A stretch of 61,553 nt of DNA from Candidatus Colwellbacteria bacterium (GTDB taxonomy: Bacteria; Patescibacteriota; Minisyncoccia; UBA6257; Colwellbacteraceae), in NCBI GenBank assembly GCA_016176525.1, contig JACOWZ010000003.1, positions 1 through 61,553 on the forward strand, written 5' to 3'. Numbering within the stretch: position 1 is the first letter of the stretch; each line of letters starts with the position of its first letter. The notes beneath the pieces are model-generated. The model searched no databases. It saw only the letters and a list, made by a program, of their open reading frames with translations, and was not told the origin of the DNA. A program made the translations under genes and the position numbers. Of this stretch, positions 2,555-29,914 are shown in pieces.

Positions 2555-2586
2555 TAGTTAATAGTTTGTAGTGAGTAGTGTAGTAG
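2555..2586. repeat. Degenerate heptamer array TAGTKKG (about 4 units) at the 3' end of rnhB
   Basis: TAG recurs at 2555, 2562, 2569 and 2576. The 19-nt string tagtttgtagtgagtagtg (2562-2580) is identical to 23275-23293. Confidence 0.8.
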
Positions 2587-3187
2587 ATTTCTTCAAGAAG
2601 GTCAATCGGTGAACTTTGGAATGACTATGCTTTTTTATTGCTAGGCGGTGGATTCTTGTTCCATAGCCTTTATGCAGATTAAAGCTATACTCTGGATATT
2701 TTTTATGTAATTTAACCATATATCTGTCGCGAGCAACTTTGGCAACAATAGAAGCTAATTTTATTGCATTGATTTTCTCGTCGCCTTTTATTATTGTCTT
2801 TGCCCACGGAAAATTAAGCATCTGATACTTTTTGTGTTTAACATATAAACCGCCATCCAGAAATAGTGAGTAGTTAATAGATTGTAGTGAGTAGTTGAAA
2901 AGTAATTTTTTTAGCGCGCGGTGAGCAGCCAAGTTTGCGGCCATGGTTATGTTTATGCCATCAATCTTGTTTGGATAAACTCTTGCAACTGCGTATCTAA
3001 AGTTTGTGCGGATATATTCTGCCCAAAGTTCGCGATGATGAGATAAAAGTTTTTTAGAATCCCGAAGCGGTAATTTTAAATTTGAAATTTTAAATTTTAA
3101 ATTGACTGGCGCGGCTACTGCCGCAACAGTTATTGGCCCTGCGAGCGCCCCTCTTCCAACTTCGTCTATGCCTATTACATACTTCAC
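2558..3187 (-). CDS. rnhB: Ribonuclease HII
   Basis: N-terminal IGIDEVGRGALAGPITVAAV plus DSKKL motif. 209 aa. Contains three heptamer-repeat tracts (listed separately). Confidence 0.85.
   Translation of the reverse strand: MKYVIGIDEVGRGALAGPITVAAVAAPVNLKFKISNLKLPLRDSKKLLSHHRELWAEYIRTNFRYAVARVYPNKIDGINITMAANLAAHRALKKLLFNYSLQSINYSLFLDGGLYVKHKKYQMLNFPWAKTIIKGDEKINAIKLASIVAKVARDRYMVKLHKKYPEYSFNLHKGYGTRIHRLAIKKHSHSKVHRLTFLKKSTTLLTTNY
2864..2898. repeat. Degenerate heptamer array TAGNNNN (5 units) inside rnhB
   Basis: tagtgag tagttaa tagattg tagtgag tagttga, with TAG at 2864, 2871, 2878, 2885 and 2892. Encodes NYSLQSINYSLF on the minus strand. Confidence 0.8.
3071..3103. repeat. 33-nt AT-rich module (AATTTKA heptamers), copy 1, inside rnhB
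   Basis: taattttaaatttgaaattttaaattttaaatt is identical to 27944-27976. Translated [11 protein letters not shown] in both genes. Confidence 0.9.
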
Positions 3188-3200
3188 TTTGTGAAGTATA

Positions 3201-3228
3201 GAATTTTCAATTTTAAATTTCCAATTTT
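3201..3228. repeat. Intergenic heptamer array NAATTTT x4 in the rnhB/dnaE divergent region
   Basis: gaatttt caatttt aaatttc caatttt. In addition, gaattttcaat is repeated at 3201-3211 and 3233-3243. Confidence 0.7.
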
Positions 3229-3270
3229 CATTGAATTTTCAATGTTTTAAATATAGAATAAGCACGCACT

Positions 3271-6200
3271 ATGCCTAAATTCGTACATCTGCATACCCAC
3301 AGCCACTACTCCCTCTTAGACGGCTTGTCTAAAATAGACAAGCTGGTTTTGCGTGCAAAAGAACTTGGCATGCCAGCATTAGCACTTACCGACCACGGCA
3401 ATATGTACGGTGCTGTTGAATTCTACAAAAAATGTAAAAAAGAAGGTGTGAAACCGATAATTGGCGTAGAAACCTATATTGCCAAAAATTCGCGCTTTGG
3501 GCGCGACTCGAAAACAGATTCTACAAGGTATCACCTAACACTCCTTGTTAAAAACGGGGTTGGCTACAAGAATTTAAACACACTTATAACAAAGTCTCAT
3601 TTAGAGGGCTTTTATTACAAACCAAGGATTGATAAAGAACTTTTAAAAGAGTATAGCGAGGGGTTAATTTGCCTATCCGGCTGCTTTTCCGGCGAAGTAG
3701 CAAGGCTTTTACAGGCTAATCAGGTGGAAGTTGCCGAGCGTGTTGCAAAAGAATACAAAACAATATTCAAAGACGATTACTACATAGAAATACAGCCTCA
3801 TAGCCCGAATCTCCATAAAGGGCTTATTGCGATTTCCAAAAAATTAAATATTCCGCTTGTTGCAACGCAAGACTCGCACTATCTTAGACCTGAAGATGCT
3901 ACTATGCACGAAGTATTTTTGGCAATTCAGACAAACGCAAGATTTGAGGACGAAGACAGATTTAGTTTTAAAAAATATAACGCGTCACTGCGGCCGATGG
4001 AAGAAATGGCAGAGCTTTTTAAAGACTTGCCAGAGGCAATAGAAAACACGGTTAAGATTGCGGATAAATGTAATTTTGAGTTTCAGCTAGGTAAAACAAT
4101 ACTCCCCCACTTCGATGTGCCGGAGGGTAATGATGCAAATTCATATCTGGAAAAACTCTTAATGGAGAAACTCGCCAACCGTTATCCAAAGGCGCCACAA
4201 GAAGTAAAAGACAGGCTAAAGTATGAGCTAAGCGTAATAGAGAAAACCGGCTTTGCGGATTACTTTTTGATAGTGCAAGACTTTGTAAACTGGGCAAAAG
4301 AGCGCGGGATTGTTGTTGGGCCCGGCAGGGGTTCTGCGGCGGGGAGCATAATTTCTTATATTTTAGGCATAACAGATGTAGACCCTTTAAAATATAACCT
4401 TCTTTTTGAGAGATTCTTAAACCCAGAGAGAATATCAATGCCTGATATTGATTTGGACTTTGCCGACACCCGCCGAGACGAAGTGCTGGGTTACCTTAAA
4501 GATAAATATGGCGAAGACCATGTAGCGCAGATTATAACCTTCGGAACAATGGCCGCCCGGGCATCTGTGCGCGACGCAGGCCGCGCGCTCGGCATGCAAT
4601 ATGACTTTTGCGACCGCATAGCAAAATTAATTCCGTTTGAACCGAATATGAATAAATCTGATACCCGCTTGGATAAATATCTGGAGGCTGTGCCGGAGCT
4701 AGGGCAAGAATACAAAACAAACCCAGACGCTAAAAAACTAATAAACGCCGCGCGCGAACTTGAAGGCACGGTTAGGCATGCATCTGTGCATGCATGCGGA
4801 ACCGTGGTATCGCGCGAATCACTAGTAAACTATATGCCACTTCAGCGCTCGCCGCAGGATGAGAAGGCAACAATCACGCAATTTGAAATGCACAGCGTAG
4901 AAGACCTCGGGCTTTTGAAAATAGATCTTTTGGGGCTGCGCACGCTAACAATTATTGAGGAAACGCTCCGCTTGCTTAAAGAAATGCAAGGCAAGGATAT
5001 TAATATTACTGAAATTCCATTGGATGACAAAAAAACATATAAATATCTACAAACTGGCGAGACAACCGGCGTGTTCCAGTTTGAATCCAGTGGAATGCGC
5101 AGATATATGAAAGAAATTGTACCTACCACACTTGAAGACTTAACTGCGCTTGTCTCACTATATAGGCCCGGCCCAATTGAACTTATCCCCTCTTTTATTG
5201 CGCGCAAATTTGGGCGCGAAAAAGTAACCTACCTTCATCCAAAACTTGAACCCATATTAAAAACCACCCACGGCATAGGGGTATACCAAGAGCAAATGAT
5301 GCAAATTGCAAGAGACTTGGCAGGCTTTACACTGCCGGAAGCCGACACCTTGCGTAAAGCTATAGGCAAAAAGATAAAGTCGCTTTTGGATGAACAAGAG
5401 AAAAAACTTATTGACGGCATGGTTAAAAACGGCATAAACGATACAACTGCGCGTAAGATTTGGGAACTCTTCCCACCTTTTGCAAGATATGGATTCAATA
5501 GAAGCCACGCTGTAAGCTATGCGCTTATTGGCTACCAAACAGCATACTTGAAGGCGCATTATCCGGTTGAATTTATGACCGCGCTTTTAAATAATTCTAA
5601 AGAAGATGTTGAGCGCATTGCCCTTTTGGTAAGCGAAGCTAAAAGAATCGGCATACAAGTTTTGCCACCGGATATTAATATGAGCGCGGAAAAATTCGTG
5701 CCAGAAGACAGCAACATCCGCTTTGGAATAGCTGCCATAAAAAACGTAGGCAAAAACATAACAAGCGTAATAGTAGAAGAGCGGTTAAGGGGTGGGGCAT
5801 ATAAAAGTTTGGAAGATTTCGCATCACGTATAAGCCACAGAGACCTCAATAAAAAATCATTGGAATCTTTGGCAAAAAGCGGCGCGCTGGATTCATTTGG
5901 TATTGAAAGAAATACCATATTAGAAAATATGGACAACATTTTAAAACTGAAAAATGGCGCCAAATCTGCAAACGAAAATCAGATAGGACTTTTTGCACAC
6001 AAACCAATTGAGATAAAAATAAAATTAAAAGAAGCAAAACCTGCGGCTAAAATGGAGCGGCTAAATTGGGAAAAAGAGCTTTTAGGCTTATATATTACAG
6101 ACCATCCGCTAACTGGAGCCTTAAGTAAAATTAAAGGAGCCGAGCCGATATCTGGAGTACTAACAGAGACAAATGAAAGAAAGACCCATAAAATTGCCGG

Positions 6201-16968: not shown

Positions 16969-16996
16969 TGTTAATTGTTATATGTTAATTGTTACA
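16969..16996. repeat. Intergenic heptamer array TGTTAWW x4 between divergent tRNA genes
   Basis: tgttaat tgttata tgttaat tgttaca. It ends 12 nt upstream of the + strand tRNA. Confidence 0.7.
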
Positions 16997-17007
16997 AGTT
17001 ATTTTCC

Positions 17008-21144: not shown

Positions 21145-22364
21145 TATTTTTTTACGTATTTTTTAAACAAATCACCTTTTTCTTCAAAGTTCTTCCATAC
21201 TGAATAGCTGGGCGAGGCGCAAGATAGCATGCATACAAAACCCCTTGGAGTATGCGCATATCCAAACTCAACAGCAGTTTCCATATCTCTGGTTTCTAGA
21301 ATATTCCAATCGTTGCCGAGACGGGTAAGCTCTTCTAAAATTCTAGCACCGCTATCCGGGAAAAGAACCACGTTTCTTATGCCGCTAAACCTAACTTTCT
21401 CCGCAAGCTTAGAGAAATCATATCCCCTATCTGTGCCGCCCAAAAAAATTGTGCCTACATTAGGTATTGAATTTAATGCCTCAATTGTAGACTCCGGCGT
21501 TGTTGAAATAGCATCATCATAAAAAGTAATGCCTTTATGTGTTCCTACAAATTCCAAGCGATGCGGCAATGGCTTAAAATTCTTAACTGCTTTTTCTATA
21601 GTTTTAGTAGGAATTTTAAAGATACTCGCAATAGTCACCGCGGCTTTTATGTTCTCTATATTATGCTGGCCTACAAGAGGCAAACCCTCTTCCGAAAAAG
21701 GCAGCTTTTCTATATATGGCACTGGTTTTGCATTAGTTTTTTTAGCAAGTTCTATAAGCTCTGGATAGCCTGGATTGTAAACAAAGTAGTCGTCCACGCT
21801 TGCAAACTGTAAAATTCTTTTCTTCGCCGCTTTATATTCTGTAAACCCGCCGTGGTAATCCATATGCTCCGGAAATAAGTTTAAAACCGCAGCAATATGA
21901 GGCGAATATTCTATATCAGACAACTGATAGCTAGAGAGCTCAAAAACATATATAGCTTCTTTAGTTTTTGGTTTTATTAGCTCCATCGTAGCTGGCTTGC
22001 CAATATTGCCTACAAGGTAAGCATCAAAACCTGCAACTTTTAATATGTTATAGGTCAACGAGGCGACTGTACTCTTGCCTTTTGTGCCAGTGATGCCGAC
22101 GATTGGCCCATTAGCATTTGCAAAAAATATATTTGTCGGAGTGGTATACTTCGCCGATACCAGTTTTTGCGGAATTCCGGGAGATTTTATAACCAAATCA
22201 TAATCATTTTGCTTTAGCAAATAATCCGGGTCGTCTTTTTGGTCGGCAATGCCTATTTTAGAATCAGGACAATATTTTTCCAAGAATTTGTGCACTGCCT
22301 TGCCCTCTAGGCCATAACCCAAAATTAAAATCCTTTTATATTTCTTTAATTCTTTTAAATTCAT
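21135..22364 (-). CDS. murD: UDP-N-acetylmuramoylalanine--glutamate ligase (MurD family)
   Basis: N-terminal ILILGYGLEGKAV, P-loop GITGTKGKSTV and Mur ligase middle and C-terminal domains. 409 aa. Confidence 0.85.
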   Translation of the reverse strand: MNLKELKKYKRILILGYGLEGKAVHKFLEKYCPDSKIGIADQKDDPDYLLKQNDYDLVIKSPGIPQKLVSAKYTTPTNIFFANANGPIVGITGTKGKSTVASLTYNILKVAGFDAYLVGNIGKPATMELIKPKTKEAIYVFELSSYQLSDIEYSPHIAAVLNLFPEHMDYHGGFTEYKAAKKRILQFASVDDYFVYNPGYPELIELAKKTNAKPVPYIEKLPFSEEGLPLVGQHNIENIKAAVTIASIFKIPTKTIEKAVKNFKPLPHRLEFVGTHKGITFYDDAISTTPESTIEALNSIPNVGTIFLGGTDRGYDFSKLAEKVRFSGIRNVVLFPDSGARILEELTRLGNDWNILETRDMETAVEFGYAHTPRGFVCMLSCASPSYSVWKNFEEKGDLFKKYVKKYKK

Positions 22365-23715
22365 ATGGTCTTAAATGTTCACTAGAAACTCCAGTAATTT
22401 CTTTCTCTTGAATCTTGCTAAGCGGCTTTAAAAATCGGGGTTCTTTAAGCAACGCTTTTATAACCGCGTCATTAGCATAATGCCCCGACTCCACCGCCTT
22501 ATGCAAGGCAAATTTTACCTCCTCGGGAGCGCCAACACACTCAAACGGCTTAAACCTAGATATTCCCAAAAGTTCTTTGTAGAGAGGCACAAGTGTGCGG
22601 TCTGCAAGCAGATTCTTACCGAATATAGAAACGAGCTTATTTTTGGAGACAAAAGGAATAAGTATTGTAAAAACAAACGCACATTTAGGGCAAACCCCAC
22701 ACCAATTAAGCTTCCCAGTTTGCTCCCAAATTTTAATCGCGCGATTGCAGCTAGAGAATTTGCGCAGATATTTTGTATATTTGCTAAAAATCTCGGCAAT
22801 TTTAATTTCGTAAAGCGACCGTAAGAGAGAAAAATATGTAATGCCAGGGTTGATATATTTAGATGCATAATTCTGCATTATTCTTTCAAACTCTATAGAC
22901 TTGCTCCATTGGTGGTTTGCTTCTTCGCCTAAATATTTAACATTGCCGTAATTAGAGCTTCTCTCGTTAGAGGCTATAACATATCTAAGCCCGTATAAAA
23001 TAGCAGTGAGTTCGCCAACAAATGCAAACACAGCAGATACCGGAACGTGGCCGTTGTAAACATCTTTGCGAGTGTTTAACGCTGTAAGCTGAGGATCTAA
23101 TTGGCGCAGAACAATCATAGATTTAGGCGGTGCAATTTTTTTAGCAAGCTTAAGCCGTGCGGTAGGAACCACGATAAGTGGAGTAAAATTAAATTTGTGT
23201 TTTTTTAAAAGCTCTAGAGAAACAAGAGAGTCTTTGCCGCCGCCGAACAACAACAATGACTTGTTGCTAGTGTGTAGTTTGTAGTGAGTAGTGCGTGGTC
23301 TCCGTGCAGAAACGGGAAAATTTATAAGCCCGCGAAAGTCTATTCTGTTCTGATAGAAAAATTCGCCGAGGCCGAGTTTATAAACTTTATCCCAGAATTT
23401 TGCCTGCTCGGGCGTTAGCGAGTAATCTGCAATTTCAATTCTTTTTGGACAAAAGGTTTTCCAATAGCTTATGCCCAGAATCAGATGCAAGGATTTTACC
23501 GCTGCATCCAATGCTTTTTTATCTACCTTGCTCCACTGAATTTTCTTTGGGAAAACCAGTTCTTCTATAAAAGTAAATTGTTCGTCAAACTTGTCTAAGG
23601 AATATATAAACTTAAAAGAATTAGACTTTTTATCTATCGTGTAATCCTTAAATGTAAAGATGGTATTTACCGCACGGCTTTCCATAGCTTGGCTTGAATT
23701 ATAGATTAAATGCAC
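22336..23715 (-). CDS. PP-loop ATPase-like protein, candidate UDP-MurNAc-L-Ala-L-Glu epimerase (MurL-like)
   Basis: 459 aa. PP-loop-like LLLFGGGKDSLVSLELL and a CxxC pair CGVCPKC. Overlaps the murD start by 29 nt. The MurL assignment is inferred from size, ATP-motif and murD linkage only. Confidence 0.45.
   Translation of the reverse strand: MHLIYNSSQAMESRAVNTIFTFKDYTIDKKSNSFKFIYSLDKFDEQFTFIEELVFPKKIQWSKVDKKALDAAVKSLHLILGISYWKTFCPKRIEIADYSLTPEQAKFWDKVYKLGLGEFFYQNRIDFRGLINFPVSARRPRTTHYKLHTSNKSLLLFGGGKDSLVSLELLKKHKFNFTPLIVVPTARLKLAKKIAPPKSMIVLRQLDPQLTALNTRKDVYNGHVPVSAVFAFVGELTAILYGLRYVIASNERSSNYGNVKYLGEEANHQWSKSIEFERIMQNYASKYINPGITYFSLLRSLYEIKIAEIFSKYTKYLRKFSSCNRAIKIWEQTGKLNWCGVCPKCAFVFTILIPFVSKNKLVSIFGKNLLADRTLVPLYKELLGISRFKPFECVGAPEEVKFALHKAVESGHYANDAVIKALLKEPRFLKPLSKIQEKEITGVSSEHLRPYEFKRIKEI
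23268..23295. repeat. Heptamer array TAGTKKG x4 inside the MurL-like gene
   Basis: tagtgtg tagtttg tagtgag tagtgcg. Encodes RTTHYKLHTS on the minus strand. Confidence 0.8.

Positions 23716-27526: not shown

Positions 27527-29914
<2,388 letters not shown>

Follow-up and report, generated by a model that had tools for sequence, protein, structure and literature searches.

AATT-core heptanucleotide tandem arrays in rnhB, ligA and other genes of Patescibacteria

A 33-nt sequence, TAATTTTAAATTTGAAATTTTAAATTTTAAATT, occurs exactly twice, at 3071-3103 and 27944-27976 of the + strand, in a stretch of 61,553 nt of Candidatus Colwellbacteria DNA (assembly GCA_016176525.1, contig JACOWZ010000003.1, positions 1 to 61,553; hereafter the window), and the two copies lie in frame within rnhB (RNase HII) and ligA (NAD-dependent DNA ligase). 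We found that this 33-mer belongs to a family of short tandem arrays, made of 7-nt units with an AATT core, which recurs inside genes and in spacers across Patescibacteria, or candidate phyla radiation (CPR). We put roughly even confidence in the explanation that the two copies are independent members of this family, arising and homogenised in place and tolerated in surface loops of the host proteins.

The 33-mer of rnhB and ligA

The original prediction for this DNA described an exact repeat, in frame in both genes and with abrupt ends, and this is confirmed here for both coordinates, the strand and the shared peptide. The host genes, rnhB (2558-3187; PF01351) and ligA (27527-29563), are on the - strand, and the two copies are translated as the same 11-residue peptide, corresponding to residues 29-39 of RNase HII and 530-540 of LigA. 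Identity stops abruptly on both sides, with g/t before the module and g/c after it. No further copy with up to three mismatches was found in the window, and none of 100 dinucleotide shuffles of the window reproduced the match. Since the GC content of the window is 39-46%, a 33-nt stretch with a single G/C (3%) is conspicuous. Tandem Repeats Finder assigned a period of 7 to the module, with 4.6 copies in rnhB and 5.4 in ligA and matches of 92% and 90%, respectively, in agreement with the claim that this is a discrete module built of heptamers and not a duplicated gene segment. In rnhB the array (3071-3103, - strand, codons 29-39) has five AATT cores, in the units AATTTAA (twice), AATTTCA, AATTTAA and AATTA. 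The ligA array, also on the - strand, spans 27935-27976 and consists of the 33-mer (codons 530-540) plus a decayed sixth unit, AAAATCAGC (KIS), that extends it to 27935. In addition, rnhB hosts two and ligA one of the ACTAC-type arrays described below.

In LigA, the module is contained in a 12-residue insertion of the helix-hairpin-helix (HhH) domain, directly before SIEELQ, when compared with the E. coli enzyme (PDB 2OWO). In RNase HII it is placed between strand 19-27 and DSKKL, in a loop that is 5-6 residues longer than the basal form. The AlphaFold2 model of RNase HII had a mean predicted local distance difference test (pLDDT) score of 93, and of 81 for the 10-residue block holding the module, and the rnhB module is modelled as a short hairpin-like excursion from a confident fold. 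The homologues of the window LigA and RNase HII come from Jorgensen-, Colwell-, Wolfe- and Liptonbacteria and similar lineages, and the best of them are only 72% and 65% identical, respectively. GC-rich hairpins are found beside both 33-mers: the ligA copy directly adjoins CCGCGCTAAAAGCGCGG (27977-27993), and the rnhB copy is separated by about 8 nt from GCGGCTACTGCCGC (3111-3124). The LigA orthologues L001 and L002 have a hairpin of different sequence at the same place. We discarded such hairpins as a general feature of the arrays because they are missing at most other copies of the module.

A heptanucleotide family in Patescibacteria

The exact 33-mer was present in 11 contigs of other species (low-GC, CPR-like metagenome-assembled genomes). 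Three of these occurrences were outside open reading frames (ORFs), and the hosts of the exact 33-mer were MiaB, LigA (at another site), a GT4 glycosyltransferase, TsaE, RecG, RlmN and LeuRS, with the same 11-residue peptide. Several of these proteins carry two to four related arrays. A metagenome scan in which codon 7 was left free yielded at least 120 matching contigs, again with discrete ends, and the hosts of the family also include RecJ, enolase, TatD and pilin leaders, which brings them to at least 12 gene families plus non-coding DNA. Arrays were in frame in independent assemblies from NCBI, JGI, ENA and Logan, and the AATT consensus recurs in lineages of both Microgenomates and Parcubacteria. 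The in-frame recurrence in conserved enzymes that had been noticed for two genes is a matter of the same DNA in many unrelated housekeeping genes. Several public bins bearing the module (L124, L126, L128 and L133) are titled Gammaproteobacteria or Bdellovibrionales, labels that look wrong; the MiaB of L124, for instance, labelled Gammaproteobacteria, is nearest to Roizmanbacteria/Microgenomates homologues. A general pattern of 4.5 AATTTNN units was abandoned on viral contigs, where the satellites of AT-rich giant viruses swamp the signal.

The anatomy of the family is simple: AATT cores exactly 7 bp apart, with a 3-nt spacer, usually in numbers of four or five (25-32 nt), AATTTAA being the commonest unit. 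The core is palindromic, and either strand of an array therefore shows AATT plus 3 nt. Across CPR loci totalling about 0.96 Mb, arrays of at least four AATT cores were counted at periods 5-12, and all 176 of them had period 7, a result that argues against ordinary AT-rich low complexity, named beforehand as a possible source. When tandem arrays were scanned irrespective of their unit, periods 6, 7 and 8 had 14, 190 and 8 of them, respectively, and 39 of the 190 lacked AATT. Masking the arrays that had been search targets left 14, 61 and 2, and in 140 kb of CPR DNA not selected for arrays the three periods had 1, 8 and 0. No period-7 arrays were found in E. coli and B. anthracis pXO1, small controls of 50 kb each. 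Distances between AATT motifs peak at 7, 14 and 21 in CPR DNA and show no such peaks in E. coli or pXO1, and the overall frequency of AATT is not raised (observed/expected, 0.98). The window holds three AATT arrays in 61.5 kb, and the density in unselected CPR DNA is about one per 20 kb; for arrays of three units, 0.06 loci are expected per shuffled window versus the three observed.

Among arrays that were not themselves search targets, 19 had three cores, 25 had four, 15 had five and one had 17. Those inside ORFs did not exceed six cores, and non-coding ones reached 7, 8, 9, 15 and 17. Spacers are uniform inside an array and differ among arrays (TAA, CAA, GGA, TTC, TCA, ACG and TCC), and this homogeneity within tracts and difference between them is the mark of concerted evolution. 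At the end of contig L143 (9257-9547), perfect AATTTAA arrays of 15 and 17 cores stand together with several short ones, possibly a satellite-like region at which the assembly breaks.

Three units make 21 nt, or seven codons, and every array is therefore translated as a peptide with a 7-residue period. This period, N-[L/F/S]-[K/Q/E]-[F/L]-x-I-x, alternates polar and hydrophobic residues, and the array peptides occupy surface loops or replace amphipathic segments. A perfect (AATTTAA)n, on the other hand, has a TAA stop in all six frames and can survive in an ORF only with a one-base escape, and all the single-base ways out of TAA are in use. Among the matches listed there were 113 non-redundant metagenome copies; codon 7 of the 59 that are in ORFs of at least 120 aa was AAA in 22, GAA in 11, TCA in 9, CAA in 5, TTA in 4 and TAT in 2, whereas the copies with an unbroken TAA were all (23/23) outside long ORFs. 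Both window copies carry the TCA (Ser) escape. Since TCA is one of about six interchangeable escapes, the identity of the two copies amounts to family membership plus a coincidence of roughly 0.2 and is no evidence of copying. Direct duplication between rnhB and ligA was rejected, as metagenomes commonly contain this array with one or another of the interchangeable escapes. Given the peptide and the codon usage of the window, the probability of this DNA is 1.3e-4, and that of two independent encodings of the peptide coinciding is 2.4e-5. The array is thus a matter of the DNA and not of the peptide, and stop-laden copies are common in non-coding DNA. An orientation bias of the ORF copies (59 versus 2) was disregarded because it is built into the search pattern.

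The two window sites were compared with those of 120 homologues each. The LigA site is variable in length and often contains translated AATT-heptamer peptides (for example NFQFPIS, NSKFKI and KLEIRN), and one homologue, P0010, which is 67% identical, has the same 12-residue peptide there. In its DNA (L001), 36 nt are identical to the window array between flanks that are 67% identical. The unit at this site is AATTTAA in the window and in L001, and a perfect (AATTTCC)x4 in L002 and L003; type IV pilus genes flank ligA in L001-L003, which is synteny and nothing more. In RNase HII, peptides resembling N-x-K-[FL]-x-I-x-N-x-K-L are present in the loop of nearly all homologues, the shortest loops being of E. 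coli length. RNase HII orthologues chosen regardless of the array (L255-L258) displayed AATTACA-type, AATTTTA-type and decayed arrays in the loop, and the decay was seen in the higher-GC relatives L256 and L257. By peptide-only scoring, array-compatible peptides of at least 9 residues were found in 22 of the 120 LigA and 28 of the 120 RNase HII homologues (0.35 and 0 in shuffled sequences), clustering at about 156-168 and 528-540 in LigA and at about 24-36 and 84-108 in RNase HII. On the evidence of these alignments, we regard both window sites as array hot spots and not as private insertions. The original prediction had also considered an ancestral peptide, not a mobile one, at both sites. 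Relatives do have similar peptides at both, although the underlying DNA is not freely diverged and keeps the AATT period.

Arrays are added in some proteins and substituted in others. TsaE, LigA and RNase HII are lengthened by the module when compared with non-CPR orthologues. The MiaB segment is equally long whether or not it holds the array, native residues being replaced in a series of orthologues, and the GT4 glycosyltransferases show no length change either. The unchanged length of MiaB means that arrays are not always added, and that they can overwrite, or swap into, a compatible amphipathic segment. After GQNVNSYG, MiaB homologues also have a hypervariable insert that can reach about 60 residues; it is full of heptamer-derived peptides such as ENSKFKIQNSKLQLKTKELKFNENLKLKIKN and is missing in the shortest homologues. 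The miaB genes of L124 (- strand) and L261 (151-1314) are 97-98% identical except for a patch of about 115 nt that holds the array and has 34 substitutions, the trace of a short-patch recombination event involving diverged CPR lineages. Relatives whose flanks differ by 0-0.7% have identical arrays, and no length variants, gains or losses were found in six clusters at 90% identity, a small sample. Identical arrays were also seen in orthologues whose flanks are 61-77% identical (the window LigA and L001, over 36 nt; TsaE; MiaB; RecG), these cases having been chosen for matching. We did not accept this identity as proof of purifying selection, the cases having been found by array search or picked for a peptide match.

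At the LigA hot spot a single internal indel was seen, a 30-nt GC-rich palindrome in L263 that lies inside an AAAATCA-type array and is absent from L264 (1.8% divergence). This element (3601-3630, CCCGCCTGCCAACACGAAACGGCGGGCAGG) is in frame and encodes PRLPTRNGGQ. Other GC-rich palindromes within or beside AT-rich heptamer arrays are at L262 10898-10914, L177 3582-3601 and L130 2903-2922; CCCCGATTAAATCGGGG, with TCAA on both sides, splits a MiaB array and CCTGCCTGCCGGCAGGCAGG adjoins an AATTGAA array. In the alignments, array hot spots repeatedly contain PAGRVG, PTGRQA and PWPGRQ, peptides similar to those encoded by the palindromes. The palindromes look like true in-frame mobile or selfish insertions, and none was found in the window.

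Other arrays and features of the window

One more AATT array and four arrays with a different core are present in the window and had been missed in the first reading. The AATT array is intergenic (3199-3230, strand unassigned) and was found with a degenerate heptamer search between the divergent rnhB and dnaE. Its units are AATTTTC, AATTTTA, AATTTCC and AATTTTC, and it overlaps sigma70-like promoter matches, by consensus, for both genes. In the surrounding region (3192-3260), two copies of TATAGAAT, at about 3195-3202 and 3251-3258, stand on either side of the array, and the downstream copy is likely to be the -10 element of dnaE. A -10-like TATACT for rnhB ends 8 nt before the GTG start, a position that suggests little or no leader on the rnhB mRNA.

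The second heptamer family has an ACTAC core, and its four arrays, all on the - strand, are divided among ligA (one), a 459-aa ORF (one) and rnhB (two). The ligA array (29050-29083; AAACTAC, AAACTAC, CCACTAC, AAACTAC, CAACTA) encodes an 11-residue peptide in a loop (LigA about 156-168) that in other lineages is filled with AATT-compatible peptides, such as EIENWKLKI and IPNSKFQIP. In the 459-aa ORF (22336-23715), the array at 23268-23293 is translated as TTHYKLHTS. The first rnhB array (2862-2896; AACTACT, CACTACA, ATCTATT, AACTACT, CACTATT; peptide NYSLQSINYSLF) coincides with the second array hot spot of RNase HII, and the other (2555-2586) spans the stop codon at the 3' end of the gene, with a peptide that ends in TTLLTTNY. 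Through these arrays the peptide TTHYKL is common to unrelated proteins of the window. The existence of an ACTAC-core family in the same kinds of loops and in the same genes points to a generic process.

Two further observations were made in the window. At 16970-17001, just upstream of an apparent tRNA gene, there is a 14-nt tandem repeat (GTTAATTGTTACAA, 2.3 copies). Moreover, several palindromes are avoided (observed/expected: TCGA, 0.34; GATC, 0.54; CATG, 0.62; GGCC, 0.68), the pattern that is expected under restriction-modification pressure.

Origin of the arrays and comparison with known systems

Under the explanation that we favour, arrays would be born and kept homogeneous in place by tandem duplication or by template-switch conversion between AATT microhomologies (slipped-strand or microhomology-mediated). 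Short-patch recombination between lineages would reshuffle them further, and they would persist only where the product tolerates the array and stops are avoided. What the sequences show directly is the family with its strict period and hot spots, the stop escapes, the uniformity of each array and the recombination patch; we infer both this generating mechanism and the lack of a function of their own in the coding copies. A process acting in place explains why spacers are uniform, why conserved sites carry units specific to each lineage and why arrays decay in higher-GC relatives, as well as the second core family, the size cap in ORFs and the pattern of escape codons. Several observations weigh against it. 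Slippage or microhomology-mediated duplication predicts neither an exclusive step of 7 nt nor the dominance of AATT, a motif with an observed/expected ratio of 0.98. A single 7-nt step in an essential ORF is a frameshift, and copy-number variants were not seen among near-identical relatives, so that the presumed dynamics were not observed. In MiaB, a perfect array without a change in length could not come from simple expansion and would need conversion, paired events or a directional force on point changes. The identical arrays amid flanks 61-77% identical, even if picked for matching, hint at constraint, and the start-codon bias of the non-coding arrays (16 versus 4, see below) looks functional. 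Finally, the predicted hairpin of the module is no more stable than those of shuffled sequences (z = -0.8 and -1.1); with folding energies the same as in the shuffles, a stable hairpin or cruciform was rejected.

The unexplained 7-nt step, the dominance of AATT, the avoidance of frameshifts and the constant length of MiaB keep alive the idea of a functional or driven DNA signal. It is quite possible, though we would not wager on it, that the arrays are a selected or driven DNA or RNA signal across CPR, accommodated in coding sequences for want of spacer DNA. Candidates are a sigma70-type promoter or AU-rich translation leader, a site for a protein reading AATT every 7 bp, in the way that ribbon-helix-helix omega repressors read heptads, or a motif of the uptake type that biased transformation and short-patch recombination would spread. 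Both window copies match TTTAAA-N17-TAAAAT at 9 of 12 positions on the sense strand of the gene (a consensus match only), an arrangement whose 29 nt equal five cores, and the intergenic array overlaps promoter-like matches for rnhB and dnaE. Non-coding arrays often occupy the entire spacer between genes, in short spacers just upstream of start codons; a start codon lies within 10 nt ahead of the A-rich strand in 16 of 58 of them, versus 4 of 59 in the opposite direction, and several abut the ATG directly or precede a Shine-Dalgarno sequence. The recurrence of one consensus in Microgenomates and Parcubacteria and the replacement in MiaB without length change also fit a signal, DNA uptake sequences in coding regions being reached by replacement, and short-patch recombination does exist in these genomes. 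However, a signal read through the AATT cores alone gives no reason to expect homogeneous spacers, units poorly suited as promoters (AATTGGA, AATTACG and AATTCAA) form arrays of equal size inside ORFs, and arrays without the AATT core have the same period and size. The coding copies lie about 520 nt (rnhB) and 420 nt (ligA) before the ends of their host genes and not near downstream gene starts, the arrays decay in L256 and L257, and a density of about one per 20 kb is far below that of known uptake sequences. Tentatively, the AATT arrays at 7-bp spacing could be a cis-element shared by CPR that dedicated machinery writes or reads (a promoter or leader code, an enzyme duplicating DNA in 7-nt steps, or a protein that recognises heptads and serves in DNA binding, chromosome organisation or uptake), imposed on essential coding sequences and so shaping the loops of housekeeping proteins.

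We consider it unlikely that the 33-mer is a mobile module, akin to Rickettsia palindromic elements (RPE) or miniature inverted-repeat transposable elements (MITE), inserting in frame while one master sequence spreads within and between genomes. The exact copies in unrelated genes and at three non-coding places, spread over 11 contigs from other species, the 120 or more metagenome copies with discrete ends, and the residues added in TsaE, LigA and RNase HII are what such a module would produce, and an RPE-like insertion had been the original prediction. That claim was not supported: the module is a direct tandem repeat with neither inverted termini nor target-site duplications in its flanks, and its many unit types of one architecture would need many masters. 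Orthologous sites are filled across deep divergence by lineage-specific, partly decayed arrays, MiaB and the GT4 glycosyltransferases do not change in length, and the sole true presence/absence insertion at the hot spots is a different, GC-rich palindrome. No CRISPR array was found beside the L132 copy. It is very doubtful, too, that selection acts on the peptide, as an amphipathic, Lys-rich beta-hairpin useful in nucleic-acid enzymes whose DNA identity would follow from AT-biased codons. The alternation of polar and hydrophobic residues, the modelled hairpin-like excursion in RNase HII, the many hosts that bind nucleic acids and the similar peptides conserved at the same loops would suit this idea, which is contradicted by the two coding probabilities given above, by the perfect arrays with six-frame stops that are common in non-coding DNA, and by hosts such as glycosyltransferases, enolase and pilin leader peptides. 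It seems highly improbable that the arrays are phase-variable contingency tracts or sites of programmed -1 frameshifting. The unit length is not a multiple of three and there is one in-frame A_AAT_TTA, a canonical slippery heptamer, at module positions 21-27, but the hosts are essential housekeeping genes (rnhB, ligA, miaB, recG, leuS and similar), and neither length changes nor frameshifted alleles were found in near-identical relatives or in the 90%-identity clusters. A -1 slip would meet a stop within 9 codons in rnhB and 13 in ligA, and no stimulatory structure stood out in folding. Lastly, a chance match of low-complexity DNA or an assembly artefact can practically be set aside: the module does consist of simple repeats with 97% A+T, but the shuffles gave no match and far fewer three-unit arrays, only period 7 is enriched, and the in-frame arrays come from independent assemblies.

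No description of heptamer repeats of this kind in CPR/Patescibacteria was found in the searchable literature, so that the AATT heptamer habit of these genomes is apparently undescribed, and it is a real possibility that the 7-nt rule reflects something new in kind. If confirmed genome-wide, a strict 7-nt periodicity with an AATT core would reach into essential genes and set the sequence of surface loops in enzymes such as RNase HII, LigA, MiaB, RecG and LeuRS, and would point to either an unusual replication or repair property of minimal, host-dependent bacteria or an unrecognised DNA signal. The periodicity would be a simple marker for binning CPR contigs, several module-bearing bins appearing to be mislabelled. 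The arrays explain many odd "low-complexity" insertions in CPR proteins, and they advise caution, as identical peptides in unrelated CPR proteins should not be taken as homology or domain transfer. They also make it testable how repeats that are not triplets arise and persist in essential ORFs.

Of the known systems, RPE, which Ogata and co-workers are said to have described in 2000 as inserted in frame, and MITE-like elements share with the arrays the presence of short repeated DNA in unrelated conserved genes and in spacers, translated in frame at positions that the fold tolerates. RPE are, however, palindromes of 100-150 bp with a unique sequence and presence/absence polymorphism, whereas the arrays are 25-32 nt of tandem 7-nt units in many variants, have no inverted ends, fill the same loops across deep divergence and sometimes replace residues without a change in length. 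Contingency loci include the tetranucleotide tracts in Haemophilus lipooligosaccharide (LOS) genes and the 7-bp repeats upstream of hmw. Like the arrays, their tracts are head-to-tail repeats of short units, homogeneous within the tract and not a multiple of three, so that a change in copy number shifts the frame. Unlike them, they are long, hypervariable and located in surface or restriction genes, while the arrays have at most five or six units in ORFs, lie in essential genes and show no copy-number variation in close relatives.

The uptake signal sequences and DNA uptake sequences (USS/DUS) of Pasteurellaceae and Neisseriaceae are non-repetitive motifs of 9-12 nt at about one per kb. They resemble the arrays in being DNA-level motifs common to related lineages, placed in genes at tolerant positions and in particular frames by replacement, and in the exchange of short DNA patches, and they differ from them in that the arrays are tandem repeats of 25-32 nt, at about one per 20 kb and with variable spacers. 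The ribbon-helix-helix omega repressor of pSM19035 reads 7-bp heptads, WATCACW, in plasmid promoters. Here the likeness is in contiguous 7-bp units, of which several are needed for function and which can be read in either orientation, but the unit of the arrays is AATTNNN and most of them are inside ORFs. In Plasmodium falciparum, with a genome of about 80% AT, housekeeping proteins have homopolymer-like insertions rich in Asn and Lys and without a fixed period. These are also peptides derived from AT-rich repeats in loops of conserved enzymes, although the arrays are found at a GC content of about 42% (window) and keep a strict 7-nt period.

Microhomology-mediated tandem duplication has been proposed as a general origin of tandem repeats, linked to Okazaki-fragment maturation (bioRxiv 10.64898/2026.02.28.708716). 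AATT-N3-AATT, a 7-bp segment flanked by a 4-bp microhomology, is the substrate required in that process, which nevertheless has no stated preference for 7 nt or AATT and leaves arrays of constant length unexplained. The perfect tandem repeats of Borgs create disordered protein regions and have, within genes, units that are divisible by three and of many lengths and sequences (PMC9879509). They have in common with the arrays that tandem repeats are pervasive and recently homogenised, in and between genes, and add peptide segments to proteins. In contrast, the arrays are invariably built of 7-nt units, AATT dominating among the cores, and their hosts are core housekeeping genes of a bacterial superphylum.

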